Both the position numbers and the translations under genes were made by a program. The notes under the pieces are model-generated. The model saw nothing but the letters and a program-made list of their open reading frames with translations. It was not told where the DNA came from and searched no databases. From contig JAVRCJ020000018.1 in the NCBI GenBank assembly GCA_034530875.2, positions 64,001 to 128,000 on the forward strand: a stretch of DNA of 64,000 bases. The letters run 5' to 3'. The DNA is from Nostoc sp. DedSLP01. Lineage in GTDB: Bacteria > Cyanobacteriota > Cyanobacteriia > Cyanobacteriales > Nostocaceae. Positions 18,306-36,400 of this stretch are shown here, one piece after another; the first letter of the stretch is position 1; each line of letters opens with the position of its first letter.

Positions 18306-19199
18306 TCAAAGTACATTTGTTTCTTTCCTATTCCCTACCTCAATGAGAAATTCTGACATATATTGATTCACCAACTCCGGCTGCTCTTGCTGCACGCAAT
18401 GACCACAATTAGGAATATATTTAATTTGAAAATCTCTAATATAAGCTGCGGTATCATAGCTTAATTCCTTGCCGAGGGCAGGGTCATTTTCTCCCCAAAT
18501 CATCAGCGTTGGAACTTCCAAAATTCCCCAATTTGGATTCAGGATTCTCTGCTGAAAAACATTGCGGTAATAGTTCAACATTGCTGTGAGTGCGCCACGT
18601 TTTGCAGCAGCATCTTTATACGCATTAATATCTGCTTCTGTCCAAGCTTTTTTATTAACTGCTGTGGCTTTAAAAGCCGTTTCAATTGCTTGGTAATCTA
18701 AAGATTGTAAAAGTAACTCTGGTATCCACGGTAGTTGAAAAGCAAAGATGTAAGAGCTACGTAGCAATTGTTGAGGAGTGCGCATACCTTGGGCAAATTT
18801 GGCAGGATGAGGCAAATTAAGGATAATTAATCGCTCCACCGCTTCCGGATGAGCATAAGCAAAATTCCAAGCGATCGCTCCTCCCCAATCATGCCCAACT
18901 AAAACGCATTTTTCGTATCCTAATCCTTTAATTACTCCTTCAACATCTTTGATAAATTCATCCATAACGTAAGCTGATTGCTCTGGTGGCTTATCACTAT
19001 CGTTGTAACCACGCAAGTCAATAGCAACGGCTTTAAAATCTTCGGCAAACTTTGGTATTTGATGCCGCCAAGAGTACCAAAATTCAGGAAACCCATGTAA
19101 CATCAACATCAAAGGCCCTTGACCTTGGGTGACGTAGTGTAGTTTCACTCCATTGGTAGTTATATATTCGTGTTGCCAAGAAGGTTGTGTTACAGACAT
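18306..19199 (-). CDS. Alpha/beta hydrolase, epoxide hydrolase family
   Basis: LHGFPE, DLRGY, VGHDWGG, GHCVQQE motifs; likely start MSVTQPSW. Confidence 0.9.
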   Translation of the reverse strand: MSVTQPSWQHEYITTNGVKLHYVTQGQGPLMLMLHGFPEFWYSWRHQIPKFAEDFKAVAIDLRGYNDSDKPPEQSAYVMDEFIKDVEGVIKGLGYEKCVLVGHDWGGAIAWNFAYAHPEAVERLIILNLPHPAKFAQGMRTPQQLLRSSYIFAFQLPWIPELLLQSLDYQAIETAFKATAVNKKAWTEADINAYKDAAAKRGALTAMLNYYRNVFQQRILNPNWGILEVPTLMIWGENDPALGKELSYDTAAYIRDFQIKYIPNCGHCVQQEQPELVNQYMSEFLIEVGNRKETNVL

Positions 19200-19645
19200 A
19201 ATTAATACGATTTCAGTATCATCCAAGATTAGTTAATACTAAATTTAATATTATTTTGAGTAAATTAACATCTATTAAAAGATAGGATTAGAATAGTAAT
19301 TCTCATGATTTTCGGATGAACTTGTTATCCTCTAGTACCTGACTATATATAGGACTAGTGGTTGATTTTTGCGAAGCTACGTACAGTTTTTTCATTTTAT
19401 AAAATAAAAAAATTGCCCTGTACCTTAACTATTACCTGCAAAGATTCTTCATCAATTGCACTGCGAAGTTGAGATAAATTATTTACAGATGCAAGTAACC
19501 TCGCTAAACGAATAATTCATTTTGAGATTTCATCATACTCAAGCAAGAATTATTATCAATCTAACAACTATAATATTTGATATAAGGGCTATTTTTTTGA
19601 TACTAAACTGAGTAATTTAAGTACTGAAAAATTTGATAGCTTTCG

Positions 19646-21112
19646 TCAACGAACAGCTTTCAAGGTATCGTAAAGTAATTTGTAGCGATTAAACGCTACT
19701 TCATACAAAGGATTTGTCTGCGGCTGTACCATATAACTAGCTTGGGATAGTATCTTGAGTGCAGTTTCTAAATTAGGGTAGGCACCAACTCCTACCATTG
19801 CCAAAATAGCAGCTCCGTAAGCGGCTCCTTCTTCGGCTTTGGGAGCAATAAGTTCTGTTTGCAAGACATCTGCTAAAATTTGCAACCAAATATTAGACCG
19901 TGCGCCTCCACCTGTGGCCAAGAGTTGATGCACGGGAGCGATCGCGCTAATTACCTCCAAGGCTTCCCGCAAGCTGAATGCAACCCCCTCCAGTACAGCA
20001 CGAATGACATCTGCCTGCGTATGAGCTAATGACAAATTTACTATTGCACCGCGAGTATCTGGATCGAGGTGGGGGCTGCGTTCTCCTGAAAGGTGAGGCA
20101 GAAATAGAACACCACGCGCACCAGGTAGCGATCGCCCTGCCATTTCCATCAACTCGGTGTATGATATCTGCGGTGCAAATGTATCTCGATACCAACGCAA
20201 AGATCCACCAGCCGCTAACGTCACTCCAAGTAGATGATAGCCACCATCAACATGACAGAACAAATGGACTCGACCTTGGGGATCGGGAATTGGGCGATCG
20301 CATGGTGCAAAGATAACTCCCGATGTACCAATACTCAAACTACCCAGGTTGAGGTTGTTGGATGAGATACCCAAACCAATTGCTGCTGCTGCATTGTCGC
20401 CTCCGCCTGCAATTACAGGCAATCCTACGGGTAATCCTACGCGGGCAGCGATTTCTGGTTTTAGCCGTCCGGCGATCGCAGTAGATTCGATGACTGGGGG
20501 AAATAATGCTGGTTTGATATCTAATGCGTCGAGAATATCTGTATCCCAAAGCTGCTTCGCCAGATTTAGACACCCGACACCAGAGGCATCAGATGGTTCT
20601 GTCGCTAGTTCCCCCGTTAGCACGTATCCTAGATAATCTTTTGGCAAAAGAATTTGCCACAGCCGAGTATACGCTTCTGGTTCTTGACTCCGCAACCATA
20701 AAAGTTTTGGCAGTTGAAACCCAGTAATTGCCGGATTTCCAGTGCGTTGAATTAATTCTGGACGGGGAATAGTGGCTTCAATCTCAGCAACAGCTTTACC
20801 TGTGCGTTGGTCGTTCCACAAAATTGCTGGTCTGATGGTTTTGTCTTCGGCATCGAGAGGAACCATACCATGCATTTGTCCCGATAAACCAAGGGCAATG
20901 GCTTGGCGTCCATTTAGCTGTTGGGTAACATCAGATAGAGCAGCTAAACTTGCATCAATCCAATCCGATGGGTTCTGTTGTGTCCAACCGGGTTGTGGAG
21001 TTAAAAGTGGATAGCTTCTGGTTGCTTGAGCAATAATTTGCCCTTGCAGGTCAACTGCGATCGCTCGTACTCCTCCGGTACCCAAGTCTAAGCCAATTAC
21101 GATGTCGCTCAA
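19646..21112 (-). CDS. xylB: Xylulokinase (FGGY family)
   Basis: [40 protein letters not shown] start with GGAGG SD. Confidence 0.9.
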
Positions 21113-21139
21113 TTACGCCTCCAAATTCTTAATCGCGAA

Positions 21140-21622
21140 CTAACCCAGTTTCTTGAAGTACCTAGCGACTGGAAACAGCCTAAAACCCAGCTTTTCATAA
21201 GTACAACGTGCCGGGGCATGACCTGGATCGCCTCCGGTTTCAACCATAGCAACGGACATTCCAGCAACTTTCATCCAATCAAGAGCGAATTCCATCAAAG
21301 CGGTGCCAATGCCTCGACGTTGGTAGTCTGGATCGACGGCGACCATATAGATTTCTCCCATACTGCTCTCAAAGTGGAGTTTCACGGCTACAAAGCCCAG
21401 AATTGAACCAGAGTCGATCGCCACCCACACCTTTGTGTCCGCAGCAGCACAGACTCCCTCGACAGCACGAAGCTGGCTTACACGCCAACCGTCGGGATAG
21501 AATGAGCGATACACGTCAAGATCCATTGCTTCTTGAAGCGAATCAAAAACCGGAGACCATGCCCGAATCGAAAGGCTCTTGATGGCATCAAGGTGACTAT
21601 CTTCGTATGGTTCAATTTGCAT
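21140..21622 (-). CDS. GNAT family N-acetyltransferase
   Basis: VDPDYQRRGIG acetyl-CoA motif, YEKLGF. Confidence 0.88.
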   Translation of the reverse strand: MQIEPYEDSHLDAIKSLSIRAWSPVFDSLQEAMDLDVYRSFYPDGWRVSQLRAVEGVCAAADTKVWVAIDSGSILGFVAVKLHFESSMGEIYMVAVDPDYQRRGIGTALMEFALDWMKVAGMSVAMVETGGDPGHAPARCTYEKLGFRLFPVARYFKKLG

Positions 21623-21667
21623 TTCGGTATGGACTCCACTTATAAGAGGAGGAAAAGGGGCAGGGCA

Positions 21668-21868
21668 TTGGTGTCAACTTAACGTAAAACTGCTATCTCG
21701 CAAGGAACTGAAGTTCCTTGCTAATAGCTCAAGTCATCTCAAAGATGACTGAATTCTTTAATAATCTTTAGTCTACTTCAGTAGACTTGAGCTATTAGCT
21801 TGGGAATGAATTCCCAAGCGGGTGATGAAGCCAATAGTGAAGCTATTCCTAGTTTAAGTTGACACCAA
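21668..21868. mobile_element. MITE with four internal palindromes
   Basis: Perfect 15-bp TIR TTGGTGTCAACTTAA / TTAAGTTGACACCAA; internal hairpins, e.g. CAAGGAACTGAAGTTCCTTG, AGTCTACTTCAGTAGACT, CTTGGGAATGAATTCCCAAG. Confidence 0.8.
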
Positions 21869-22027
21869 AGAGGGCAGCGGGCAGGTGTAAGTTTTTAATT
21901 AAGCAATGAGTAATGACTGTAAAACCAACGAAACGATCGTGTTTTAATAAGCCCCTATACCCTTACACCATAAAAGCAGTTTTTTTGTCCAAGTGTAAAA
22001 AACTACACCTGCTCTCTGCCTCAGAAT

Positions 22028-22264
22028 CTACCGCGTACACACAAGTCTTTTAGAGTTGTTGGGTAAGACACAGAAAATTAATTTTTGCTCTTCGATGCAA
22101 CAAAGGTGCAAAGCGATGCAACAAAGGTGCAGGGCGATGCAACAAAGGTGCAAGGCGATGCAACAAAGGTGCAAAGCGATGCAACAAAGGTGCAAGGCAA
22201 TGCAACAAAGGTGCAGGGCGATGCAACAAAGGTGCAGGTCAAGAGACTTGTGTGTAAACCGTAG
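22028..22264. mobile_element. MITE with 10-bp target duplication carrying a 21-bp tandem array
   Basis: TIRs CTACCGCGTACACACAAGTCT / AGACTTGTGTGTAAACCGTAG; perfect TSD GCCTCAGAAT at 22018-22027 and 22265-22274. Confidence 0.88.
22093..22238. repeat. 7 x 21-bp tandem repeat
   Basis: CGATGCAACAAAGGTGCA+RRG units starting at 22093, 22114, 22135, 22156, 22177, 22198, 22219. Confidence 0.95.
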
Positions 22265-22267
22265 GCC

Positions 22268-23761
22268 TCAGAATCGGGCTAACGTTTCTTTCGCTCCAAA
22301 CTCATACAATCTGCGTAAATGGTTCGTAACTGCATCGACAAAAAGCGTTGATTGGGATAAATCGCCAAAAATCTCAGTCAGGTTGAGCAATGGTCTGGCA
22401 TCAGAGCCACTGTTAGAAGCTAGTTGCGTGAGAGTACCTCCTATTGGGTCATCAATGGGAATAGCGTTGCCTTGGTCATCCTTTCCGTTGAGGTAACGGA
22501 ACCAAGCTGCAACCGTGAGGCTCATATAGTCAATTGCGCCTTTTTGGTGGAGTGCATCGCGAACTGAGCCTAAAACAAATTTTGGCATTTTGGCGGAACT
22601 ATTGAGGCAAAGCCGGGGCAGTTGGTCGCGTATCTTGGGATTGGCAAAGCGTTTTATTAAGGTCTGTTTGTAATCGTCTAAATCAATCCCTGGTACGGGT
22701 TGGAGTGTGGGCGTAACTTCTGCCATTAAACGATCCACGGCTTGCCTAATTAAAGGATCGGCCATCACCTCGTGGACGTAGCTGTAACCTGCCAAGGAGC
22801 CGAGATAACCAATCAACAAGTGACTGGCGTTGAGCAGGCGGATTTTCATCATCTCGTAGGGATGAACATCATCGGTCATCTGCACGCCAACAGATTCCCA
22901 ATCAGGTCTACCCGCACAGAAATTGTCTTCAACTACCCACTGAAGGAACGGTTCGGCAACAACTGGAAAAGCATCATCAATATTAAACTGTTCCTCCACC
23001 ATTTTGATATCTGCTGGGGTGGTAGCGGGGGTAATGCGATCGACCATACAGTTAGGAAAGGCTACCTGTTTGGCGACCCAACTTCCCAATTCCGGGTTCT
23101 GCATCTGGGCAAATGCAGTCAACATTTTCCGGGCAATGTTGCCGTTGCCTTGCAAGTTATCGCAGGACAACACAGTAAACGGTGCTATTCCCTGTTGACG
23201 GCGGCGATCGAGTGCTGCGGTCAAAAAGCCATATACGCCAATTGGCTCGTGAGGATGCTGTAAATCATACTGAATTGTTGGGTGATTGGTATCAAATTCA
23301 CCGCTACCTTCAATGTAGTAGTAGCCACCTTCAGTAATTGTGAGGGTGACGATACGGCATTTGGGATCTGCTAGGGTATCAATTACTGCTTGGCGGTTAT
23401 CTGGGGCAAAGAGATATTTTGTAATTGCTCCGATCGCGCGGGCGCGATCGCCTTCTGGCGACCTTTCAACTAAGGTATACAAACAATCTTGTGAACTCAG
23501 TGCATCTCGCATTCGTTGGTCAAATTCCAGTAACCCAACCCCGCAAATTCCCCACTCACTGCCAGGATGCTGATGAAAGTAGTTATCGAGATATAATGCC
23601 TGATGTGCTCGATGGAACCCACCCACACCGATATGGACAATGCCGTTAGTAATTTGGTGGCGATCGTAATTCGGTACGCGAACGTTACTTGCTAAACGAG
23701 CTAAAGCTGCTTCATTCAGCTTGATTGCTGAGTCGGTGCTGATATTGTTCATGGGATTCAT
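22268..23761 (-). CDS. Mannitol 2-dehydrogenase family (mannitol / D-arabitol dehydrogenase)
   Basis: HIGVGGFHRAHQA, LTITEGGY, VLSCDN, MVDRITP, YEMMKIRLLNASH, RFANP motifs. Confidence 0.92.
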   Translation of the reverse strand: MNPMNNISTDSAIKLNEAALARLASNVRVPNYDRHQITNGIVHIGVGGFHRAHQALYLDNYFHQHPGSEWGICGVGLLEFDQRMRDALSSQDCLYTLVERSPEGDRARAIGAITKYLFAPDNRQAVIDTLADPKCRIVTLTITEGGYYYIEGSGEFDTNHPTIQYDLQHPHEPIGVYGFLTAALDRRRQQGIAPFTVLSCDNLQGNGNIARKMLTAFAQMQNPELGSWVAKQVAFPNCMVDRITPATTPADIKMVEEQFNIDDAFPVVAEPFLQWVVEDNFCAGRPDWESVGVQMTDDVHPYEMMKIRLLNASHLLIGYLGSLAGYSYVHEVMADPLIRQAVDRLMAEVTPTLQPVPGIDLDDYKQTLIKRFANPKIRDQLPRLCLNSSAKMPKFVLGSVRDALHQKGAIDYMSLTVAAWFRYLNGKDDQGNAIPIDDPIGGTLTQLASNSGSDARPLLNLTEIFGDLSQSTLFVDAVTNHLRRLYEFGAKETLARF

Positions 23762-24866
23762 TAATGGTTAAATGGTGACGGCGAGCTTTAGGAATGGCTT
23801 CACCCTCTCGGTCGAACAAATGGCAAAGTTCGCCGTTAATGTAAATCGGCACGAAATCGTGCAATTGGGCGGGATTATCTCCATCTGTTTGCACTACGAT
23901 GGTGTCACCACCCGCAATTTTGATGTAAAGATAGGTTTCTCCGCCCAACCGTTCTACTACTAGCACTTCGCCATTTATGCTGGGGTTACTGCGATCGAGC
24001 CGCAGATGTTCGGGACGAATTCCTAATGTGGCTCTATCCCCAACCGATAGGCTTCTGGGCTGCACGGGAATCATTACAGTTGCATCGCCAGGAAGTCTTA
24101 CAGTTGTACCAGAGTCATTGACGGCTGACACCGTGACTGGAATAAAGTTCATTTTCGGCGAACCAATAAATCCAGCGACGAAGATATTGCGGGGATGGTG
24201 GTAAAGTTCTAGGGGAGAACCGACTTGTTCGATGATGCCACCTTGCAATACCACAATTTTGTCAGCAAGGGTCATTGCCTCAACTTGGTCGTGGGTAACG
24301 TAAATCATCGTGGCTTGCAGGCTGTCGTGTAAACTAGCAAGCTCAATTCGCATTTGTACGCGCAAAGCTGCGTCTAGGTTTGATAACGGCTCATCAAATA
24401 AAAATACTTTGGGATTTCGTACTAAAGCACGACCAATTGCTACCCGTTGGCGTTGTCCTCCCGATAGTTCTTTGGGTTTGCGGTTTAGGAGTGGTTCTAA
24501 TTGCAGGATGCGGGCGACTTCACGCGCTCTTTCATAGCGTTGGGCTTTGGGCATACCTGCAAGGCGCAGGCTAAAGGCCATATTTTCGGCGACTGTCATG
24601 TGGGGGTATAAGGCGTAGGTTTGAAAGACCATTGCCAAACCGCGTTTATCGGGTGGTATGTCGTTGACTTTTTGACCGTCGATGAGTAAGTCGCCGGAGG
24701 AAATTTCTTCTAGTCCAGCTATCATGCGGAGTAAGGTGGATTTTCCACAGCCGGAGGGGCCGACGAAAACGACAAATTCGCGATCGCTGATGTCGAGATC
24801 TATGCCTTTGATGATCTCTGTGTCGGCGTAGGTTTTATGGATATCTCTTAATGCAACTGTTGACAT
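23712..24866 (-). CDS. Polyol/sugar ABC transporter ATP-binding protein (SmoK/MalK type)
   Basis: GPSGCGKS, LSGGQRQR, FLFDEP, C-terminal TOBE. Confidence 0.93.
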   Translation of the reverse strand: MSTVALRDIHKTYADTEIIKGIDLDISDREFVVFVGPSGCGKSTLLRMIAGLEEISSGDLLIDGQKVNDIPPDKRGLAMVFQTYALYPHMTVAENMAFSLRLAGMPKAQRYERAREVARILQLEPLLNRKPKELSGGQRQRVAIGRALVRNPKVFLFDEPLSNLDAALRVQMRIELASLHDSLQATMIYVTHDQVEAMTLADKIVVLQGGIIEQVGSPLELYHHPRNIFVAGFIGSPKMNFIPVTVSAVNDSGTTVRLPGDATVMIPVQPRSLSVGDRATLGIRPEHLRLDRSNPSINGEVLVVERLGGETYLYIKIAGGDTIVVQTDGDNPAQLHDFVPIYINGELCHLFDREGEAIPKARRHHLTINESHEQYQHRLSNQAE

Positions 24867-24971
24867 AAAATGTTTCCATTAATTAAGTTTTTTATCACGC
24901 AGAGACGCAGAGGCGCAAAGAAGAACGCAAGAGTTTATTTATAATCCCTTCTGCCCTCTGCCTCCTGCCTC

Positions 24972-25793
24972 CTACTTCACTGCACCGAAGGTTAGACCTC
25001 GTACTAGTTGCCGTTGACTTAGCCAGCCGAAGATGAGGATGGGTGCGATCGCTAGTGTTGATGCTGCTGAGAGTTTTGCCCAAAATAATCCTTGAGGGCT
25101 GGAAAATGAGGCAATAAAGGCTGTGAGTGGGGCGGCGTCTGCTGTTGTTAAGTTCAGGCTCCAAAATGCTTCGTTCCACGACAAGATAATTGAGAGTAAG
25201 GCGGTGGAGGCGATTCCGGGTAGTGCTAGTGGTAGTAAGACGTGCAGGAGTTCTTGCTGTGTGGTTGCGCCATCCATGCGATCGGCTTCGAGAATGTCTT
25301 TAGGAACTTCTTTGAAGAAGCTGTAAATCATCCAGACGACAATGGGCAAATTAATCAAGGTATAAATGATAATTAAACCGATGCGGGTATCTAGTAAGCC
25401 AGCGTTGCGACATAAGATGTAGATGGGAACTAACACGCCGACAGGTGGTAGCATTTTGGTGGACAGCATCCACAGCAGAGTTCCCTTGGTGCGTTTGGTG
25501 GGGAAGAATGCCATTGCATAAGCGGCAGGTACGGCAAGCAGGAGGGCAAGTACAGTTGAGCCGAGGGAAATTGCTACGCTGTTAAATGCATAATTGAAAT
25601 AATTTGCCCGGTCTTGGATGGCAACATAATTTTCCAATGTCGGGCGGAAAAATAACTGTGGGGGAGTTGAAACTGCGGCTACTTCGGTTTTGAAACTGGT
25701 AATAAACATCCAAAAAATCGGGAAAAATAGCAGGCAAGCGGCAAGCCAACCTAGTAATGTCCATAGCCACCGCTTTGAAGTTTTACGTGCCAT
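24972..25793 (-). CDS. Polyol ABC transporter permease (SmoG/MtlG type)
   Basis: EADRMDGA EAA motif, multiple TM, LVRGLTFGAVK terminus. Confidence 0.92.
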   Translation of the reverse strand: MARKTSKRWLWTLLGWLAACLLFFPIFWMFITSFKTEVAAVSTPPQLFFRPTLENYVAIQDRANYFNYAFNSVAISLGSTVLALLLAVPAAYAMAFFPTKRTKGTLLWMLSTKMLPPVGVLVPIYILCRNAGLLDTRIGLIIIYTLINLPIVVWMIYSFFKEVPKDILEADRMDGATTQQELLHVLLPLALPGIASTALLSIILSWNEAFWSLNLTTADAAPLTAFIASFSSPQGLFWAKLSAASTLAIAPILIFGWLSQRQLVRGLTFGAVK

Positions 25794-25794
25794 G

Positions 25795-26718
25795 TTAGGT
25801 ATCCAAATTACGAGCAACACTACGCATCAAGAAGATTGCCACGATGTTGGCAAGGATGACGGCAATTAATCCACCAGCTGAGGCGCCGCCGACATCAAAT
25901 TCCAGCAAGGCTTTTAAGAAGATGTAATAGGCTAGGTTGGTGGTTGCTAGTCCAGGGCCGCCGCCTGTGGTCACAAAGATTTCGGCAAAGATGGTTAAGA
26001 AGAAAATTGTCTCAATCATGGCGACCACGGAAATGGCGCGGCTAAGATGGGGCAGCATGACGAAACGAAATAGAGCGATCGCATTTGCTCCATCCATTCG
26101 CGCTGCTTCTAACTGGTCGCGATCTAGTGACTGAATGGCTGTTAATAAAATCAGCAAGGCAAAAGGCAGCCATTCCCAGGAAACAATAATAATGATGGCA
26201 AGCAGGGGAACGCTGGCAAACCAATCAATTGCTCCCAAACCCAAGCCTCTGGTAATCTGGGCAAACAGCCCATTTACTGGATGCATCAGCATATTTTTCC
26301 AGATTAGGGCGCTGACTGTAGGCATCACAAAAAACGGCGAGATTGCTAGCACCCGCGCTACACCACGACCGTAAAAGTCCTGGTCAAATAACACTGCTAG
26401 TAATGTGCCTAGACCAATTGTGATTACTAAAACCGAAACCACCAGAATAATTGTGATGGCGATCGATGTCCATAGTGCTGAGTCAGTCAGGATGAAAGTG
26501 AAATTTTCAATGCCAATGAATTTGCGTGCATCTGGATTCAGCAGGTTATACCGCTGAAACGAAAACCATATAGTCATCACCAGAGGCACAATCATCCACA
26601 GCAGCAGGACAACGACCGAAGGCGCAACCAGAGGTAAGGTTGACGCTTGCCGTTTAGCCCGTTGTCTAGCGGGTGGCGGCGTTTCGTGTTGAGGTTTGAC
26701 CGCTAATGAAGAAGACAT
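25795..26718 (-). CDS. Polyol ABC transporter permease (SmoF/MtlF type)
   Basis: EAARMDGA motif, TGGGPG, multiple TM. Confidence 0.92.
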   Translation of the reverse strand: MSSSLAVKPQHETPPPARQRAKRQASTLPLVAPSVVVLLLWMIVPLVMTIWFSFQRYNLLNPDARKFIGIENFTFILTDSALWTSIAITIILVVSVLVITIGLGTLLAVLFDQDFYGRGVARVLAISPFFVMPTVSALIWKNMLMHPVNGLFAQITRGLGLGAIDWFASVPLLAIIIIVSWEWLPFALLILLTAIQSLDRDQLEAARMDGANAIALFRFVMLPHLSRAISVVAMIETIFFLTIFAEIFVTTGGGPGLATTNLAYYIFLKALLEFDVGGASAGGLIAVILANIVAIFLMRSVARNLDT

Positions 26719-26779
26719 AAGCAATTCGTAATTCGTAATTCGTAATTAGGGTTTGGTATGGCTGTGGAACACCTGAGAA

Positions 26780-28126
26780 TTACTCGATATAACCTGTATG
26801 TTTCATGAAGCGTTCAGTGAATCTCTGCGATTGCTGCAACGCCCCATCTATCGAAGTCCGATTAGTTAATGCTGCTGCTAAAGTTTGCCCTACTGAAGTC
26901 CCAATTGCCTGAAATTCTGGAATATCGACATATTGAACTCCCTTATAGGGTGTTGGTTCTGCGGATGGACGGGTAACATCAGCAGATTGAATTGCTTTCA
27001 GCACGATTGGGGCAAAGGGCGCTGCTTTGCGATAGTTGGGGTTTTCATACGTGGAAGTCCGAGTTCCTGGCGGTACGGCAACCCAGCTATTTTCTTTGGC
27101 AACTAGTTGGATATATTCTTTGGATGTTGCCCAAGCAACAAATCTTTGTGCGGCTTCTGGCGATTTTGAGGTTTTAGGAACTGCTAAAGCCCAAGCCCAA
27201 AGCCAGTTTGAACCGTTGGGATATTTTTCAATTGGCGCACGGGCAAAGCCAACTTTATCGTAAACTTGGGATTCTTTGGGATTGGATAATAGCCCAGCAG
27301 CAACGGTTGCATCTACCCACATCCCACATTTACCTGTGGAGAATAATGCCAAATTCTCATTAAATCCGTTGGAACTGGCTCCTGGCGGCCCGTACTTTTG
27401 CAGTAAATCGACATAAAAAGCGATCGCCTCTTTCCAAGCTGGAGTATTAATTGTCGGTTGCCACTTCATGTCAAACCAGCGTCCGCCATAAGTGTTAACT
27501 AAGGTGGAAACAAATGCCATGTTTTCACCCCAGCCAGGTTTCCCACGCAAGCAAACTCCATAAATTCCACGCGCCGGATCGTGGATCTTGCTTGCCCATT
27601 CTCTCATTTGGGGATAGGTTGGCTGTTCTGGAACTGTAATCCCGGCTTTATCAAACAGGTCTTTGCGGTAATACAGCATAGAACTTTCCCCATAAAACGG
27701 CACGGCGTAAAGTTTGCCGTTATGAGAAAGTCCTTCGCGGATGGGTTTTAGTAAATCGTTTACGTCGTAGTCTGCACCTAAATCCAAGGGTCTTAACCAA
27801 TCCCGTCTAGCCCAGATTGGTGTTTCATAAGAACCGATAGTCAGGACATCGAATTGCCCGCCTTGGCTTGCAACATCTGTAGTTGTGCGTTGGCGCAAGA
27901 CATTCTCTTCTAGCACCACCCACCGCAGTTGAATATCGCGGTTGGCTTCCTCGAACTTGCGGGAAAGTCCTTGCATTACCACCATATCGCCGTTATTAAC
28001 AGTGGCGATCGTCAGTGTAGTTTTATCTGCGGCTTGGGATTGCCACGAACAAGCGTGTAGCAGTTGCGCCAACATCACTCCAGCGAGAAATGCTACCAGC
28101 ACTTTAGCGAAGCGGGGGATACGCAT
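26780..28126 (-). CDS. Sorbitol/mannitol-type ABC substrate-binding lipoprotein (SmoE/MtlE type)
   Basis: Lipobox LHAC; TIATVNNGDM, LEENVLRQR, PFYGESS, LRGKPGWGEN motifs typical of SmoE/MtlE; AGGAG SD. Confidence 0.9.
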   Translation of the reverse strand: MRIPRFAKVLVAFLAGVMLAQLLHACSWQSQAADKTTLTIATVNNGDMVVMQGLSRKFEEANRDIQLRWVVLEENVLRQRTTTDVASQGGQFDVLTIGSYETPIWARRDWLRPLDLGADYDVNDLLKPIREGLSHNGKLYAVPFYGESSMLYYRKDLFDKAGITVPEQPTYPQMREWASKIHDPARGIYGVCLRGKPGWGENMAFVSTLVNTYGGRWFDMKWQPTINTPAWKEAIAFYVDLLQKYGPPGASSNGFNENLALFSTGKCGMWVDATVAAGLLSNPKESQVYDKVGFARAPIEKYPNGSNWLWAWALAVPKTSKSPEAAQRFVAWATSKEYIQLVAKENSWVAVPPGTRTSTYENPNYRKAAPFAPIVLKAIQSADVTRPSAEPTPYKGVQYVDIPEFQAIGTSVGQTLAAALTNRTSIDGALQQSQRFTERFMKHTGYIE

Positions 28127-28168
28127 CGCATTACTCCTTTGATATAAAAAATCGAACGGAGAAAATTT

Positions 28169-28203
28169 TTGATTTTATGCTCTATTTTTGAGTAAAAGCT
28201 CAA
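28169..28203. promoter_or_regulatory. Candidate tandem SorC-family operator in divergent promoter
   Basis: TTGATTTTATGCTCTA and TTGAGTAAAAGCTCAA, 19 bp apart; similar pair at 29231-29265. Confidence 0.55.
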
Positions 28204-28273
28204 TAATAGAATCATACCAACCCCACTTCAATGACGGTAATTTGCAACAATTCTTCAATAAGAGGCTGAATTT

Positions 28274-29071
28274 ATGACAGCAACCTATCAGTTTGCAGGT
28301 AAGAATATCTTGATTACAGGCGGTGCAGGGGATATTGGCAAGGCAACTGCACACCGTTTTGCGGCTAATGGTGCAGGTGTAGCGCTGTTAGATTTGAATG
28401 AACCGAAGATGGTAGATGTAGCTGCGGAACTAAAAGATTACAACGTTCCTATCGGCACATTTTGCTGTGATGTCACATCTGCTGATGATGTTGCCAAAGC
28501 CTTTACTGCTGCTGTAGAGCAGCTTGGACGGATTGATTATGTATTTAATAATGCGGGTTTTCAAGGAGCATTTGCCAAAACAGACGAATATCCTGAAGAT
28601 GACTTTCAAAAGACGATCAATATTAACGTTGTTGGCGTTTTCCACATTCTGAAGGCGGCTGCAAAGCACTTGCGCGATATCGGGGGAGGTGCGATCGTTA
28701 ACATGGCGAGTTATGCAGGCGTAGTGGGGCCGCCAAATATGTTAGCTTATGGTGCTTCTAAGTTTGCGGTGATTGGTATGACTCAGACAGCAGCAAAAGA
28801 CTTGGCTCCCTATGGCATCCGGGTAAATGCATTGTCTCCTGCACTTATAGGCCCTGGTTTTATGTGGACGCGGCAAACCCAATTGCAAGCAGCAGTAGGT
28901 TCTCAGTACTTTGATGCCGACCCCAAGGTAGTAGAACAACAGATGATTAATTCAGTCCCAATGCGGCGCTTGGGAAGTTTGGCAGAGGTAGCAAATGGGG
29001 TAGCGTTTCTGATGAGCGACGAAGCAAGTTACATCACCGGGTTTAACTTGGAAGTAACTGGTGGTCAATGA
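28274..29071 (+). CDS. SDR family NAD-dependent polyol dehydrogenase, xylitol dehydrogenase-like
   Basis: TGGAGDIG, NNAG, YGASK. The segments NNAGFQGAFA, GPPNM.AYG and GPGFMW.RQ..LQA.VGSQYF..DPKVV.QQMI.SVPMRR match my recollection of Gluconobacter oxydans xylitol dehydrogenase. Confidence 0.82.
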   Translation: MTATYQFAGKNILITGGAGDIGKATAHRFAANGAGVALLDLNEPKMVDVAAELKDYNVPIGTFCCDVTSADDVAKAFTAAVEQLGRIDYVFNNAGFQGAFAKTDEYPEDDFQKTININVVGVFHILKAAAKHLRDIGGGAIVNMASYAGVVGPPNMLAYGASKFAVIGMTQTAAKDLAPYGIRVNALSPALIGPGFMWTRQTQLQAAVGSQYFDADPKVVEQQMINSVPMRRLGSLAEVANGVAFLMSDEASYITGFNLEVTGGQ

Positions 29072-29230
29072 AGAGGGCAGGGGGCAGGAGGCAGGGGGCG
29101 AAAAAATGAGGTTGGATGCAGGAATTGAGTAGTTTAATTGTTGGATGTACCGAAACCTGATTTAGGCATTCACTCTTTCTTAAGCACTACTTCAATTTCA
29201 AGAGCGTTAGATCTGCACTCTTTAGTTTAT

Positions 29231-29265
29231 GCGAGCAAAAGTTATATCGTTGGGCATATACTCAA
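29231..29265. promoter_or_regulatory. Candidate autoregulatory SorC-family operator
   Basis: GCGAGCAAAAGTTATA and TTGGGCATATACTCAA, 19 bp apart, upstream of the regulator. Confidence 0.5.
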
Positions 29266-29314
29266 AATTATCTAATTATTCTTTTGGTAGGTACATAGTT
29301 TTGGAAGGTGGGAT

Positions 29315-30307
29315 ATGGGAGAGCCTTTGTTAGAGGGGCGCGATGCCAATAAAGGTGGCTTGCCCCTTAGATCCCGCAAATTAGATCTAGCTGCTCATGC
29401 TGCTTGGCTCTATTACATTGCTGGTAATACGCAAGAAGAAATTGCAGCAAAACTCAATGTATCCCGGCAAGCTGCACAACGCTTGGTGGCGCTGGCGGTG
29501 AGTGAAAAATTGATCAAATTTCGCCTCGATTATCCGCTGAGTGAATGTATTGGTCTAGCTGAGTCGCTGCGCGATAAGTTTGGGCTGTCGCTTTGTGAAG
29601 TGGTTCCAACTGACGCAGGTAATGGCGATACACTCAATGGAATTAGTGTGTGTGCTGCGACCCACTTAGAAACTTACCTGATGGCGAAAACCCCGACCAT
29701 ACTAGCGTTGTCTTCAGGTCGCACATTGCGGGCAATGGTGGAGCAAATTCCCTCAATGAACCAACCCCAGCATAAAATTGTTTCCATTATTGGGAATATG
29801 TCTCACTATGGGCGTGCAGGTCGCCACGAAGTAGTGATGCATTTGTCCGATCGCGTGGGTTCCCAAGCTTACCCAGTGCCGACTCCGGTTGTCGCCACTA
29901 GCGTTGAAGAACGAGAATTATTGCAGACTCAGCGATCGTTTATGACCGTTAAAACTCTTGCAGAACAAGCCAAAGCAACATTTGTTGGTATTAGCGAGAT
30001 TGCCTGGAATGCGCCCTTACATCAAAACGGCTTTATCAATGATGATGAAGTAGCTGAATTAATTGAACTGGGGGCAGTAGGAGAAATCGCGGGTTGGGCT
30101 TACGATCGCTACGGAGTATTGCTGCAACAAGGAACGAATACCCGGGTTGCTAGCGTACCACTCGAACAACCGGCTTCTCGGTTGATTGTTGGTGTAGCAG
30201 GCGGCGTGAAAAAGACAGAAGCGATTCTAGCTGCTTTACGCGGTCAGTTAATTACAGGATTGATTACCGATGAAGCCGCCGCCCAAGCGATTCTGATTAA
30301 AATTTAG
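29315..30307 (+). CDS. SorC/DeoR-type sugar-binding transcriptional regulator (SmoC-like)
   Basis: AWLYY..G.TQEEIA..L.VSR HTH; C-terminal VAGG..K..AILAALRG..I.GLITDE..A. Confidence 0.92.
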   Translation: MGEPLLEGRDANKGGLPLRSRKLDLAAHAAWLYYIAGNTQEEIAAKLNVSRQAAQRLVALAVSEKLIKFRLDYPLSECIGLAESLRDKFGLSLCEVVPTDAGNGDTLNGISVCAATHLETYLMAKTPTILALSSGRTLRAMVEQIPSMNQPQHKIVSIIGNMSHYGRAGRHEVVMHLSDRVGSQAYPVPTPVVATSVEERELLQTQRSFMTVKTLAEQAKATFVGISEIAWNAPLHQNGFINDDEVAELIELGAVGEIAGWAYDRYGVLLQQGTNTRVASVPLEQPASRLIVGVAGGVKKTEAILAALRGQLITGLITDEAAAQAILIKI

Positions 30308-30311
30308 ACAC

Positions 30312-30614
30312 TCAAAAGCGATCGCGTCCAATATGAACTTGCCACTCTACGACTCTAGCAGAATCGGATAGCATACCATCTCGCACCCGAGGACTACTGT
30401 TGACAATAGCTTGAGCCTCTTCCAGATTCTCTGCCTGAATAACCCAAAGCCCAGTTCCATCATGGGGAAAAAACGGCCCGCAGCACAGTAGCGTTCCTTT
30501 TTCGTACTGCTCGTTAAACCAAGCAAGTTGATTTTGGTCATGCTCTGGGTGAGCCTTTTTATAGTCATAATATTCTTCAACAGTCGCAACCACAACGGCA
30601 AAAAGCTTAGACAT
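30312..30614 (-). CDS. YciI family protein
   Basis: H...L......G.LL..GP...G.GLWVIQAE.LEEA..I...P pattern. Confidence 0.75.
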   Translation of the reverse strand: MSKLFAVVVATVEEYYDYKKAHPEHDQNQLAWFNEQYEKGTLLCCGPFFPHDGTGLWVIQAENLEEAQAIVNSSPRVRDGMLSDSARVVEWQVHIGRDRF

Positions 30615-30713
30615 AATATTTTTGTTAGCTGTTAACGATTTGAGATGAGACCCCCACCAAATCTACGATTTGGTGCAAAACAATCAGTCGCGGGTCTGAA
30701 TAAGAGACTTTCT

Positions 30714-30775
30714 TGTTCTGACTCCTGTTAGCGTAGCGGGGCGTAGCCCATTCTGAATTCTGAATTCTTCTTCAA
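30714..30775. repeat. 62-bp dispersed repeat, copy 2
   Basis: Matches 16673-16734; overlaps the symporter stop codon. Confidence 0.8.
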
Positions 30776-31695
30776 GAATTTTTACGCCAAATTGAAGCTA
30801 TCAGCGAACCTGTAAGATTGTGACAAACGCTGAATATTGCTCCTGGTAACGCTGCTAGTGGTTCAAAATGGGCGATCGCTAATGCTACAGCTAAACCAGA
30901 ATTTTGCATTCCCACTTCTATGGAAATTGTACGGCAAATAGGTGTTGATTGACCTGTAATAACTGCGCCGATATAACCCAAGATTAAACCCAAAACATTA
31001 TGTAAAATTACCGCTACGATTACTATTGGCGCTATCAATAATTTATCGCTATTTAAGCCCACAACTGTAGCAATAATCCAAACAATTGCGAACATAGAAA
31101 CTAGGGGTAATACTCCTTCTATTAAGAATTTACTAGGAGTCCAAAAGCGCCGAATTACAATTCCTATTAATACAGGTAATAGTACAAATTGGACTGTAGT
31201 CATAATTAAAGATAACGGTTTTATTTCAACCCAATTTGATCTGAGTAACCAAATCCAAGCAGGGGTCATAATTGGGCTGATGAGTGTAGAAGCAGTAGTT
31301 AAAGCTACAGATAGAGCTACATCGCCACGAGCCAAAAAAGTAACTACTTCAGAAGCTGTTCCTCCAGGACTGGCACCAACAAGAATCACGCCCAATGCCA
31401 ACATCGGTGGTAATTTGAAAACTGTTGCAGCTAACCATCCTAACAGTGGCATGATAGTAAACTGGAGCAACACTCCCAAGATTAAGGCTTTCCCAGCATT
31501 TCGTAAGCTTTTTAATTGCTCGATAGTGATTGTTAAACCCATTCCTAACATCACTATTCCCAGTGCTGTTGCAATATTACTACTACCACTTGCGGCAATT
31601 TTTGGGAACAAATAACCAGCTATTGCACCAATTAATACCCAAACAAAAAATAAATCTTGACTGAACTTGATGAGACGATTAATTTGGTAAGACAT
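30772..31695 (-). CDS. Bile acid:sodium symporter (BASS) family transporter
   Basis: MLGMGL, QFTIMP, SPGGTAS, TISIEVGMQNSGLA. Confidence 0.92.
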   Translation of the reverse strand: MSYQINRLIKFSQDLFFVWVLIGAIAGYLFPKIAASGSSNIATALGIVMLGMGLTITIEQLKSLRNAGKALILGVLLQFTIMPLLGWLAATVFKLPPMLALGVILVGASPGGTASEVVTFLARGDVALSVALTTASTLISPIMTPAWIWLLRSNWVEIKPLSLIMTTVQFVLLPVLIGIVIRRFWTPSKFLIEGVLPLVSMFAIVWIIATVVGLNSDKLLIAPIVIVAVILHNVLGLILGYIGAVITGQSTPICRTISIEVGMQNSGLAVALAIAHFEPLAALPGAIFSVCHNLTGSLIASIWRKNS

Positions 31696-31771
31696 TTACT
31701 GTATCTGGATGTGTCATAACTTTTGCAGACTTGGGAATTATCTGAACCCTGACTAGCAAATGCTCTACTGC

Positions 31772-31900
31772 GTGACGTACTCCACACACTCACCCGAAGG
31801 GGAGTGTGGACTTCTCAACGACTCCTCTATGAGGACATTGATTGAGCTTTAAGACCGTGCGCCCCACGGTTCTTTATGTTTATAGCTGCGTTCAAATCCC
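31772..31900 (-). ncRNA. Putative TnpB omega/reRNA scaffold (5' limit approximate)
   Basis: Right-end hairpin TCCACACTCCCCTTCGGGTGAGTGTGTGGA just after the tnpB stop; placement inferred from known TnpB biology. Confidence 0.5.
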
Positions 31901-32999
31901 TGCAAATACTTGTATGGCAAACAGGGCAATTATGTATTCTCTGGGATAGCGGCTTTTTAACTTTGTGACCACAGCTAGAACACTCTTGGCTTGTGCTATT
32001 TGGATTTACAGCTATTACCTTCAGACCAGCGTTTTCGGCTTTGTTTGAAAGTATAGTTACAAACTGTCCCCATCCGGCATCATTAATACTTTTAGCCAAT
32101 CTTGTTTTAACTAGTCCTTTGATATTTAACTTTTCCACAGCTATAACATCATACTTGTCAAGTAATAGTTTCGCTGTTTTAAAGTGAAAATCTTTACGAG
32201 TATCAGCAACTTTTTTATGCTGTTTACCCAGTTTTTGAATAGCTTTTTTACGACGAATAGAACCTTTTTTGCGTCTTGATATCTTACGCTGTGCTGACTT
32301 TAATTTACGTTCAGCTTTGCGTAGATGCTTTGGTGCGGTAATCCTAGAACCCTCAGAAGCCACATAAAAATCAATTAAACCGACATCAATGCCAACAATA
32401 TTATCAGGGTTGAAATCAGGCTTAATAGTTGGAACCGTTTTATCATCAAGACTGAGAGTCACATAGTAACCATCAGCTTTTTTAGTAATAGACACTGTTT
32501 TAATATCAAATCCATCTGGTATTGGTCGATGGACAATTACCTTGACTTCCCCAATCTTGGACAGCGTAATTTTGTTATTAACAAAATGGTGACGCTTAAA
32601 TTGGGTATAAGTGAAAGTTTTATATTGCCCTTTACCCTTAAATCTAGGTTTACCAGATTTTTTCCCGTTAACGTCACCCTTTAACCATCTATCAAAAGCT
32701 AGTTCAACTTTTTTAGGGACTTCCTGTAATACTTGAGAGTGAATCTCTTTGTACCAAGGTCTATCAACTTTCAGTTGAACCAAAGACGCTTTTTGATTGT
32801 AGTAGTTAGGTTGTTCCTTTAAATCTGGCAGATGACAAATTAACGGACATCTATCAATAGGACAACGATTTTGCTCATACCAATCAAATCTTTGAGCAAG
32901 TAAATAGTTATACTGGCAACGTAACATTTCCAGCGTTTTATCTATCTTTTCTGCTTGCTCTTTAGTTGGTTTGATTTTGTATTGGTATGACGTTTTCAT
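31827..32999 (-). CDS. tnpB: RNA-guided endonuclease TnpB
   Basis: N-terminal YKIKPTKEQ; RuvC residues GIDVG, AVEKL, RDLNAAINI all intact; Zn ribbon CSSC...CPVC. Confidence 0.95.
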   Translation of the reverse strand: MKTSYQYKIKPTKEQAEKIDKTLEMLRCQYNYLLAQRFDWYEQNRCPIDRCPLICHLPDLKEQPNYYNQKASLVQLKVDRPWYKEIHSQVLQEVPKKVELAFDRWLKGDVNGKKSGKPRFKGKGQYKTFTYTQFKRHHFVNNKITLSKIGEVKVIVHRPIPDGFDIKTVSITKKADGYYVTLSLDDKTVPTIKPDFNPDNIVGIDVGLIDFYVASEGSRITAPKHLRKAERKLKSAQRKISRRKKGSIRRKKAIQKLGKQHKKVADTRKDFHFKTAKLLLDKYDVIAVEKLNIKGLVKTRLAKSINDAGWGQFVTILSNKAENAGLKVIAVNPNSTSQECSSCGHKVKKPLSQRIHNCPVCHTSICRDLNAAINIKNRGAHGLKAQSMSS

Positions 33000-33063
33000 A
33001 ACCGACGAGTGTTTTTCGACCTACAAACAGGATAATATAAAGTGTATCCATTGTGTAACCAAA

Positions 33064-33237
33064 ATGAAAAATAAACAATTGCGGTTAAGAATGTCTGATC
33101 GCAGATTTAACAAACTCAAAGAATATGCAGAATATGCAGATAAAACAATGACTCAGGTGATAGATGAACTCATTGACACGTTGCCAAACATAAAAGATGC
33201 TGACTCCTCATCGACCCACTGCCCTGTCAAGGAATAG
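33064..33237 (+). CDS. Small ribbon-helix-helix/CopG-like protein divergent from tnpB
   Basis: MKNKQLRLRMSDRRFNKLKEYAEYADKTMTQVIDELIDTL beta-alpha-alpha pattern. Confidence 0.7.
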   Translation: MKNKQLRLRMSDRRFNKLKEYAEYADKTMTQVIDELIDTLPNIKDADSSSTHCPVKE

Positions 33238-33476
33238 CGGATTGAATTGGTTGTAGGTCATAAGTTTATGCTTTCAACAGTCTTTGCCTTCAGTCTGGGT
33301 TAGAAAATACTATCTGTAGATAGATTAAATGAATTTATTTCGTGGTACATAATCCTGATGGCGGTTTTATTCGTATTTCACCCTCTGCGCTTCTTGACAA
33401 TGGCTCCGGCTAAAAGAACGGTAGTTCTGGGTCAACCAATTGCCATCACCTTGATTCGGGATCGATCGCACTGACC

Positions 33477-36400
33477 GTGATAAACTCTAATATTTCTGAA
33501 AATATTTTTGTTGGCGACAGCGAGATGGCGGGACTCATGCGATCGCTCGACTGGTCGCAAACACCCTTGGGGGCGGTATCTGGGTGGGCACAGAGCTTGA
33601 AAACTTCAATAAGCATCTTGATGAGTTCTCGCTACCCCATGTTTGTTTGGTGGGGGCGCGAGTATGCGAACCTTTATAATGATGCGTATCGTCCTATACT
33701 TGGTGCTAGCAAGCATCCTCAATTTTTGGGAAAGTCTGCCAAAGACTGTTGGGCAGATGTCTGGGATGTGGTGGGGCCCCTGGCTGATAGCGTTTTGGAC
33801 ACAGGGCAATCCACCTGGTCTGAGAATTTGTTGTTGATTATGGATCGCTATGGCTATGCGGAGGAAGCCTACTTCACTTTTTCCTATAGCCCCGTGCGTG
33901 ATGAAAGTGGCGGAGTTGGCGGTATCTTCTGTGCAGTCATTGAAACTACAAAGCAGGTTATCGGAGAACGTCGGCTGCGAACTTTGCGTGAATTGAGCGC
34001 CAGCACTGTAGAAGCCAAGGCAGTTGAGGAAGCTTGCCATTTTGCTATGGCTGCGCTGTCTGCCAATGCTGAGGATATTCCCTTTGCCTTGTTATACCTG
34101 ATAGAAGCAAATGGCAGCGAGGCGCGTTTAGTTTCCACAACCACCAGCATTGAACCGGGAACCATCGCCAGTCCTCAGCAAATGGATTTGACTGATACAA
34201 GGGATTTGTGGAATTTATCGCGGGTAAATCAGACCAAGGAAACAGAGTTAGTTGAAGATTTAACGGTGCGTTTTGGTACGTTACCTGGAGGTGCTTGGCC
34301 GGAACCGTCTAATACTGCCTTGGTCATACCGCTTACCAAATCCGGACAAACACAGCAGTTAGCTGGATTATTAGTAGTTGGCATTAGTCCTCGACGGGCG
34401 TTAGATGACGAGTACCAGGGATTCTTCGATTTAATTGGTACTCATGTGACTACGGCGATCGCCAATGCCGAAGCATACGCAGCAGAACGCAGACGTGCCG
34501 AAGCTTTAGCAGAACTAGACCAAGCAAAAACTCTGTTTTTCAGTAATATCAGCCACGAGTTTCGCACTCCATTAACGCTGATGCTCAATCCCTTGGAAGA
34601 TATATTAGCCAACCCTTCAGGCCCCATACCAAGCGATCGCGAACAGTTAGAAATTGTCTACCGCAACTCAAAGCGTTTGCTGAAACTGGTTAATAGCTTG
34701 CTTGACTTCTCCCGCATCGAAGCTGGGCGGGTTGAGGCAGTTTACGAGCCAACCGATTTGGCAATGTTTACCGCGGATCTTGCTGGGATATTTCGTTCGG
34801 CAATTGAACGCGCGGGACTTTCTTTGCAAGTGGACTGCCCCTCATTGCCCGAACTCGTTTATGTAGATCGGCAGATGTGGGAAAAGATTGTTTTGAACTT
34901 ACTTTCCAATGCCTTCAAGTTTACCTTTGAAGGAGAGATTACAGTTTCTTTGAGTTGGCAAGACTGTCAAATTGCAAGAGGAACTGCCAATGAGATAACC
35001 CCAGATCGTTCTCCCGCCTCATCGCCCCAAGTCATTCTGCAAGTACGAGACACAGGAACGGGCATTCCCAGCGAAGATTTACCTTTAATATTTAATCGCT
35101 TCCATCGAGTCAAGGGGGCAAAAGGACGAAGTTATGAGGGTTCAGGCATTGGTTTGTCATTAGTGCAAGAACTAGTGCGCCTGCATGAAGGGACGATTGA
35201 GGTAAGTAGCGTTATCGACCGAGGAACTTGCTTTACTGTGTCAATTCCCGCAGGGTATGACCATTTACCTAGCGATCGCATTCAGGGAACCCGCACGCTG
35301 ACATCGACGGCAATGGGAGCAACATACTATGTTGAGGAGGTGTTGCAGTGGTTACCAAACTCGTTAGGGACAGATGTTTATTCCTTAGGGCAGGCAGAGG
35401 AGCAGGGGAGCAGGGGAGCAGAGGAGAAATCCTCTTTTGTGGCTAGTTCTGCCAGGATTCTGTTAGCTGACGACAACGCTGATATGCGAGCTTATGTGAA
35501 ACGTCTATTGAGCCAGCAGTATGAAGTGGAAACCGTGACAGATGGCGTTGCGGCTTTAGCTGCCATTCGCAGGCAACTTCCCGATCTGGTGCTGACTGAT
35601 GTGATGATGCCAGAACTGGACGGTTTTGGTTTATTGCAGGAGTTGCGGGCTAATCCGCAGACCAAAGACTTACCTATTATTCTGCTCTCTGCCCGTGCTG
35701 GGGAAGAATCTCGCATCGAAGGATTAGCAGCGGGAGCAGACGATTATTTGACTAAGCCCTTCTCTGCCCGCGAACTACTGGCGCGGGTGGAAGCAACCTT
35801 GAAGCTGGCACAAGTGCGGCGAGAAGCGACTCAGCAAGAGCAGAGACTGCGACTAGAAGCAGAAACCGCCAGAGAAGCGATCGAAAACATTTTATCCAGC
35901 ATCAGCGACGGTTTTTTTACCCTCGATCGCGACTGGCGTTATACTTACGCCAACGATAGATTATGTGAAATGGCTGGGAAGCAGCGAGAAGAACTGCTGG
36001 GTTACAACATTTGGGAGTTATTTCCGGACGCAGTTGGAACAGACGTTTACGTTCAATTTCATCGAGCGATGCACGAACAAACGTCTCTCCAATTTGAGTA
36101 TCTTTATTGGCCCTGGAATCGCTGGTTTGAGTACCGGGTTTATCCTTCGCCTAATGGACTGACGATTTTTGTAGTTGAAGTAACCGATCGCAAACGCGCT
36201 GATGCCGAGCGAGAGCAATTGTTGCAAACCTTGCTCGACGAACGCGCCCGGTTTGAAGCCGTCTTGCGCCAAATGCCTGAAGGAGTAATCATCGCTGACG
36301 CTGCTTCCAAAAAGCTGATTCTGGCAAATGAGCGAACGAACCAAATACTTCAGCACTCTTTCGACTTGCATATCGAGCTGCAAGAATACGAGGAATTAGT

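Follow-up and report, generated by a model that had tools for sequence, protein, structure and literature searches.

A predicted inducible polyol import-and-catabolism regulon of the SmoEFGK/MtlK type in Nostoc sp. DedSLP01

The import and catabolism of polyols is in itself a textbook pathway, for which the smo locus of S. meliloti (SmoC, SmoEFGK, SmoS and MtlK, with XylB and Frk) provides the closest described example, as set out in passages of PMC10433430. Here we describe a cluster of eight genes at positions 19646 to 30307 of a 64,000-nucleotide stretch of Nostoc sp. DedSLP01 (contig JAVRCJ020000018.1 of assembly GCA_034530875.2, positions 64,001 to 128,000; hereafter the window), which has in common with the smo locus a CUT1-type ATP-binding cassette (ABC) importer, an MtlK-type dehydrogenase following the ATPase, a SorC/DeoR-type regulator and XylB for D-xylulose. 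The two differ in that the Nostoc short-chain dehydrogenase/reductase (SDR) is of the xylitol dehydrogenase type, in that SDR and regulator are transcribed divergently, and in that the Nostoc host is a phototroph. A previous reading of the window, made from its letters alone (the sequence-only reading), had likened the gene order to that of the proteobacterial smoEFGK/mtlEFGKDY operons, and the importer, the MtlK-type dehydrogenase after the ATPase and XylB, all as in S. meliloti, bear this out. The mtl operon of Pseudomonas fluorescens, which we take to have the same transporter-dehydrogenase-xylulokinase order and a regulator from a family other than SorC, is a further relative; the catalytic and mannitol-binding residues of the P. 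fluorescens mannitol 2-dehydrogenase (M2DH; 1LJ8/1M2W) are kept in the Nostoc mannitol dehydrogenase (mdh), whereas the Nostoc copy of the operon is without a fructokinase and the cyanobacterial mdh enzymes form a clade of their own. The xylitol dehydrogenase of Gluconobacter oxydans (1ZEM) is the best PDB match of the Nostoc SDR over its full length (E 8e-89); in contrast to it, the Nostoc SDR, for which xylitol activity is predicted, sits in a regulated ABC-uptake cluster. The Nostoc transporters GlcP and FrtABC (hrm-linked) likewise import sugars in support of heterotrophy, but belong to other transporter families and take other substrates.

Reading of the open reading frames (ORFs), together with profile searches, confirmed at the level of sequence a SmoEFGK/MtlK-type polyol system of eight intact genes, and we consider it probable that the cluster acts as an inducible polyol import-and-catabolism regulon. 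The minus strand carries, in order of transcription, the genes for the substrate-binding protein (SBP; 26780..28126), two permeases (25795..26724 and 24972..25820), the ATPase (23712..24866), mdh (22268..23761) and, further downstream, the xylulokinase XylB (19646..21112), while the SDR (28274..29071) and the regulator (29315..30307) lie divergently on the plus strand. This is the order given by the sequence-only reading, whose family assignments were upheld by Pfam and NCBIfam profiles and by PDB matches.

The SBP, two permeases and MalK-type ATPase lie in one predicted operon, as expected of a SmoEFGK/MtlEFGK importer. The SmoE/MtlE-like SBP (PF01547) matched PDB entry 4RYA, described as 'ABC transporter substrate binding protein (Sorbitol)', with E 1.2e-173 against 5.5e-29 for the next match, and is closer in this search to a polyol-binding protein than to other CUT1 proteins; a lipobox-like LHAC can be read off its residues 23-26. 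Both permeases belong to PF00528, the SmoF-like one (25795..26724) being assigned by synteny and the SmoG-like one (24972..25820) being 72-75% identical to permeases of Halomonadaceae loci, and the MalK/SmoK-type ATPase (PF00005, OB_MalK, TOBE_2) exceeds the NF008653 UgpC-subfamily cut-off. The nearest named relatives of the SBP among the matches listed are from Nostoc linckia NIES-25 and Nostoc sp. ChiSLP01 (98%), and the JGI annotation of one cyanobacterial orthologue reads 'sorbitol/mannitol transport system substrate-binding protein'. A search of plasmid records with the SBP gave 126 matches, with no cyanobacterium among the 30 matches listed and 10 named genera. The same genome also carries one sugar porter and four Peripla_BP_4 genes.

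The mdh product has both Pfam domains (PF01232 and PF08125) of the polyol-specific long-chain dehydrogenases/reductases, and its best PDB matches are the M2DHs of Aspergillus (7RK4, E 4e-157) and Pseudomonas (1LJ8, E 4e-142), the fungal enzyme scoring 527 bits and the bacterial one 478 bits. Its residues D81, D201, N202, T244, K306, N311, H314, R383 and K391 correspond to D69, D190, N191, T233, K295, N300, H303, R373 and K381 of the P. fluorescens enzyme (cofactor, substrate and catalytic residues as given in excerpts of PMC6623548), so that the triad N191/K295/N300, the residues H303, R373 and K381 and the NAD-site D69 are all represented, and the nine are invariant in 120 of 120 orthologues. 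A mannitol-1-phosphate dehydrogenase (M1PDH) was rejected, the position of S. aureus R287 being Ala390 in the window's enzyme and Arg in 0 of 120 orthologues; in the absence of this phosphate-pocket arginine, mdh should act on free polyols. A D-arabinitol 4-dehydrogenase (DalD) and a fructuronate reductase (UxuB) were likewise rejected, since the scores of 359 and 408 bits fall below the respective NCBIfam cut-offs of 600 and 603 bits. Public annotation already calls mdh orthologues 'mannitol 2-dehydrogenase', and cyanobacterial M2DH sequences were included in the alignment and tree of PMC4022671, in the part of that paper cited here.

The SDR carries the classical motifs TGGAGDIG, NNAG and YGASK, and its closest solved relative is 1ZEM, of the Gluconobacter SDR type (E 8.2e-89, with the next match at E 1.2e-43), while its identity to the SDR encoded in a Halomonadaceae polyol locus is just 33%. 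The protein retains the Asp that follows the second strand, presumably favouring NAD, and we take the substrate range of the Gluconobacter xylitol dehydrogenase as the basis for the substrates predicted for the SDR. XylB (FGGY kinase) scores 522 bits against the TIGR01312 equivalog cut-off of 380, and its best PDB match is a xylulose kinase (2ITM, E 1e-95). No xylose isomerase (xylA) was found in the genome with two family models, so that XylB probably receives D-xylulose from pentitol oxidation, and a xylose pathway for XylB was rejected on the same ground. The proposal of the sequence-only reading that pentitols are converted to D-xylulose and then to xylulose-5-phosphate is supported by this result; its treatment of the hexitol-to-fructose branch, which appears from the sequences to have been given too little weight, needs correction. 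Loci related to the cluster were gathered by an SBP search of GTDB genomes, from which the best 80 loci were listed and 63 treated as cyanobacterial, several of these being interrupted by contig ends. A ROK or PfkB kinase is present in 10 of the 63, namely PfkB in L084, L087, L092 and L098 and ROK in L085, L088, L089, L091, L093 and L099, and the window's genome has an unlinked PfkB (G000:C31) that is 48% identical to the cluster-linked kinase of a homologous locus. As a side observation, these cluster-linked kinases are candidates for the cyanobacterial fructokinase marked as unidentified in a portion of PMC10515406.

The regulator combines an N-terminal helix-turn-helix (HTH) with a sugar-binding domain (PF04198), matches LsrR/DeoR/SorC structures and is 44% identical to the regulator of a Halomonadaceae polyol locus, which places it in the SorC/DeoR family with SmoC, a repressor in S. 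meliloti according to passages of PMC10433430. Between the divergent SBP and SDR genes lies a perfect palindrome, TTGAG-N6-CTCAA (28188..28203; extended form TTGAGC-N4-GCTCAA), and a second operator-like site with one mismatch stands ahead of the regulator gene (29250..29265). Allowing one mismatch at most, the palindrome occurs within 300 bases before the SBP gene in 49 of 61 cyanobacterial loci, at a distance of mostly 70-85 bases from it, as compared with 59 of 3000 AT-rich control windows (2%) and, in a further difference from the smo system, 0 of 17 proteobacterial loci; a similar site precedes sorC in 23 of 54 loci. As the palindrome was defined from the window itself and related loci are not independent, these counts measure conservation, not binding. 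The conserved candidate operator before the SBP gene of cyanobacterial loci is new here.

Taken by analogy with SmoEFGK/MtlK/XylB/SmoC of S. meliloti (in the portions of PMC10433430 used), we infer the following mechanism. The ABC system would import acyclic polyols, and mdh would then use NAD+ to oxidise D-mannitol, giving D-fructose, and D-arabitol, giving D-xylulose, the direction of these reactions being predicted together with their substrates. The SDR, in place of SmoS, would probably convert xylitol to D-xylulose and sorbitol to D-fructose. D-xylulose would be phosphorylated by XylB to xylulose-5-phosphate and join the pentose-phosphate/Calvin pool, whereas fructose would probably be phosphorylated by the unlinked PfkB and enter the hexose-phosphate pool. 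The SorC-family protein would bind TTGAGC-N4-GCTCAA and repress the divergent promoters as well as its own gene until an inducer binds. The presumed benefit to growth is that, on land in the dark or in dim light, polyols from fungi, algae or plants could be scavenged as a source of carbon and reductant.

The phenotype that such a regulon would explain has long been reported for cyanobacteria. According to portions of a 2023 review (PMC10515406), Plectonema boryanum grows on mannitol in the dark with a 6-day doubling, Chlorogloea fritschii does so only with nitrate, Calothrix marchica and Scytonema schmidlei make weaker use of mannitol and sorbitol, and Westiellopsis prolifica is stimulated by mannitol, three of the five strains reported for mannitol being reported for sorbitol as well; the same portions name no gene for growth on mannitol or sorbitol, and neither arabitol nor xylitol occurs in the review. 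The novelty claimed by the sequence-only reading is thereby divided: polyol heterotrophy had already been reported in these five cyanobacteria, while no characterised cyanobacterial polyol locus was found in the literature covered, which took in parts of papers and few subscription journals. A study of lichen Nostoc genomes that discusses GlcP and FrtABC (PMC5987646) does not contain mannitol, polyol, sorbitol or arabitol in its main text, and polyols are not named as native cyanobacterial solutes in the sections of PMC4390839 and PMC7331161 used here. What the window appears to add to a phenotype old in the host group is thus its genes, in the form of a functional-looking polyol regulon. The cluster is a concrete, deletable candidate basis for the old reports of dark growth on mannitol and, together with the predicted operator, makes the old mannitol and sorbitol physiology directly testable. 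Polyols abound in lichens, root symbioses and soil crusts, and the cluster has a bearing on how carbon is exchanged there; lichen fungi secrete mannitol and arabitol (an excerpt of PMC11511929).

By NCBI order, the 63 cyanobacterial loci comprise 31 from Nostocales, 6 from Leptolyngbyales, 6 from Oscillatoriales, 10 spread over seven further orders and 10 without an assigned order; 52 of the 63 show the gene order SBP-F-G-K-mdh and 29 have all eight genes. The genome, 8.57 Mb and 99.8% complete, has nifD above the curated cut-off, in agreement with the N2-fixing host named by the sequence-only reading. The gene is split (G000:C13:181238-182560 and 132570-132695), the last 40 codons lying about 49 kb away, which we take to be the pattern expected of an excision element near its 3' end. 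The tie of the cluster to N2 fixers or symbionts was not borne out: many non-heterocystous orders carry it, so that the cluster is not specific to either, and symbiosis specificity was rejected on this distribution. Judging from record titles, the strains presumably include symbionts of lichens and cycads as well as free-living ones from soil crusts or aquatic habitats. The system is rare and patchy when genomes are sampled evenly. Among 401 genomes from across the phylum, a sample dominated by distant families, an mdh orthologue (at least 60% identity) was found in 16 including this one, plus one broken fragment, a full-length SBP in 4, one of them with an internal stop, and the SDR in 7. Of 251 genomes of the family, 34 gave mdh-type matches, two of which are broken fragments, and 18 have a full SBP.

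The transporter alone has been lost more than once. In sampled same-genus genomes the transporter is deleted or broken; mdh, SDR and xylB persist in three of them (L030, L032, L033), and likewise in L097, alongside ABC genes reduced to scraps. The dN/dS of mdh is 0.13 in the three transporter-less same-genus genomes against 0.08 in nine complete Nostoc loci, and a pooled 0.215 in seven transporter-less Microcoleus-like genomes against 0.19 for one complete pair, although part of the divergence in transporter-less genomes may predate the loss.

All eight genes of the cluster are under purifying selection, with pairwise dN/dS of 0.01-0.20 against five relatives. Cyanobacterial SBPs form one clade (63 rows, SH-aLRT 96) in a quick tree with a limited set of outside sequences, as do the mdh proteins (41 rows, SH-aLRT 100) in a quick tree of 72 hand-picked rows. 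In one subclade Microcoleus is intermingled with Scytonema hyalinum, Calothrix and some Nostoc, and the xylB that accompanies it is usually another one, of about 40% identity. Monophyly of the Nostocales SBPs was rejected (16 SBPs, 35 rows, p-AU 0.0196), the group being taxonomic but tested after the tree had been seen. This result suggests either old paralogy or transfer within the phylum; we read the sequences as indicating that the cluster probably changed hosts inside the phylum. Its history is best read as acquisition by cyanobacteria long ago, followed by patchy loss and some exchange. The sequence-only reading had taken at least ten HIP1 sites as a sign of long residence instead of recent transfer. 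There are exactly 10 between 19646 and 30307, 5 of them within xylB, which is close to the genome mean of 9.5 per equal-length window (755 windows) and hence an ordinary density, and HIP1 across 43 loci tracks the host, two loci having none inside or outside the core. Long residence in cyanobacteria as a whole is supported, but HIP1 cannot exclude transfer between cyanobacteria. The GC content of the cluster is 47.1% against 40.9 ± 2.0% for the genome, and its GC3 of 0.44 against 0.35 genome-wide lies in the top 0.5% of 2869 eight-gene runs. The flanking genes stand at unlinked places in five cluster-less same-genus genomes, so that no insertion site could be defined.

Many Microcoleus-type loci contain a second long-chain dehydrogenase that is specific to cyanobacteria (e.g., L036:5711-7216), followed by a HAD gene (e.g., L034:7521-8264); the dehydrogenase was seen also in L035, L037, L041-L043, L046, L068, L069, L072, L075, L077, L097, L101 and most of L135-L158. 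Identity is 59-95% for its 92 best clusters, of which all named ones are cyanobacterial, and other full-length matches then reach at most 41%. The HAD phosphatase lies directly 3' of it, usually overlapping, in 37 of 41 loci and has the FDHDG motif in 37 of 37, the other four loci being two fragments and two contig ends. The M1PDH pocket is matched only partly: Arg stands at the position of S. aureus R287 in 87 of 92 sequences, while equivalents of R283 and R294 are not evident. Ser replaces the NAD-site Asp69 in all 75 sequences covering the column, which we read as a preference for NADP(H), Asp69 presumably having a role in cofactor preference. Of 271 genomes from the phylum, 5 carried the pair, all from a single genus, and neither the second dehydrogenase nor a close HAD orthologue was found in the window's genome. 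The pair is a candidate, by sequence, for a native route of mannitol or arabitol synthesis in soil-crust cyanobacteria. Brown algae make mannitol by a dehydrogenase and a HAD phosphatase (part of bioRxiv 10.1101/2020.07.01.179531), and cyanobacterial mannitol production in the literature found, seen in part, used foreign genes.

Several findings weigh against an import-and-catabolism regulon. The cluster of this genome contains no fructokinase, and the unlinked PfkB falls below every NCBIfam cut-off; xylB is separated from mdh by 1.2 kb that include a repeat array and a GNAT gene, and only 2 of 33 loci have an operator-like site ahead of xylB. Orthologues were seen in Chlorogloeopsis sp. ULAP02 as well as in strains of Scytonema and Calothrix, all different from those reported to grow on mannitol, and presence of the cluster in the latter could not be established. 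The transporter is, moreover, often lost while mdh stays under purifying selection, and a dehydrogenase outliving its transporter is not predicted by a pure import-and-burn role. Another carrier could import polyols in such genomes, by analogy with the fructose transporter that does so in S. meliloti (passages of PMC10433430). The selection on mdh in transporter-less Microcoleus-like genomes (0.215 against 0.19) is also what would be seen if the cluster mainly took up and recycled polyols kept as desiccation or osmotic protectants, catabolism clearing them after rewetting. On this view the cluster would supply the salvage side of a polyol cycle and relatives the synthetic side, their second dehydrogenase having a HAD phosphatase coupled to it in 37 of 41 loci, and mannitol does function as a compatible solute in engineered Synechocystis (an excerpt of PMC7331161). 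We regard such a role as rather unlikely, given that this genome is without the second dehydrogenase or a close HAD orthologue and that a sugar-binding SorC-type repressor with candidate operators, along with linked kinases, points to substrate-induced catabolism.

That the cluster serves carbohydrate catabolism with other main substrates, such as other alditols or polyol glycosides, is in our view quite unlikely: SDR and mdh are both below all NCBIfam equivalog cut-offs, ligand contacts of the SBP could not be mapped and the smo locus also serves galactitol and maltitol (passages of PMC10433430), but the best PDB matches are polyol-specific by wide margins and XylB scores above its equivalog cut-off. 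A reading as cargo, recently acquired or in decay and with no present function in this strain, would agree with the atypical GC and GC3, with flanking genes not common to close relatives and with the deleted or broken transporters of sampled same-genus genomes, and is nevertheless most improbable, as all frames are intact, dN/dS is 0.01-0.20 and the candidate operator is perfect; decay in particular was rejected on the frames and dN/dS. An import-and-catabolism regulon remains the preferred reading, backed as it appears to be by PDB matches with large gaps to the next match.

A wider and more tentative proposal, which we hold to be possible without favouring it, is that terrestrial cyanobacteria run an unrecognised native polyol economy, in which Microcoleus-like taxa synthesise and recycle polyols and Nostoc-like taxa scavenge them. 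Soil-crust taxa, Microcoleus vaginatus among them, would make mannitol or D-arabitol through a probably NADPH-linked ketose-phosphate reductase, specific to cyanobacteria, and the HAD phosphatase coupled to it, and would recycle the product with M2DH and XylB, and Nostoc strains such as this one would keep the uptake and catabolic half only, scavenging from fungi, plants or neighbouring cyanobacteria. If true, this would let carbon return from fungus to photobiont in cyanolichens.

Between mdh and xylB, in the gap skipped by an ellipsis in the sequence-only reading, lie a 21-bp tandem repeat array directly 3' of mdh (22093..22236; 6.9 copies, 93% matches), which might affect read-through into GNAT-xylB, and a GNAT acetyltransferase gene on the minus strand (21140..21622; PF00583), probably a passenger, present in 7 of the 63 cyanobacterial loci. 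In Microcoleus-type loci L034, L036, L037, L039, L047 and L097 a very large gene (1700-2000 aa) separates mdh from xylB. Scans for sigma-70 promoters (21 found, 17.4 expected) and terminators (11 found, 12.6 expected) were at chance level, and an Rfam scan of 19000-33500 gave no match. Adjoining the regulator is an SBF/BASS-family symporter gene (30772-31695, minus strand), absent from the homologous loci compared, and 1.5 kb off the cluster lies a TnpB-family gene (31827-32999, minus strand; NF040570 above cut-off) with close copies in several same-genus genomes. An ORF of 263 aa (15550-16341, minus strand), without a Pfam or NCBIfam match at the thresholds used, is kept at about 85% DNA identity in 4 of the 5 same-genus genomes searched.

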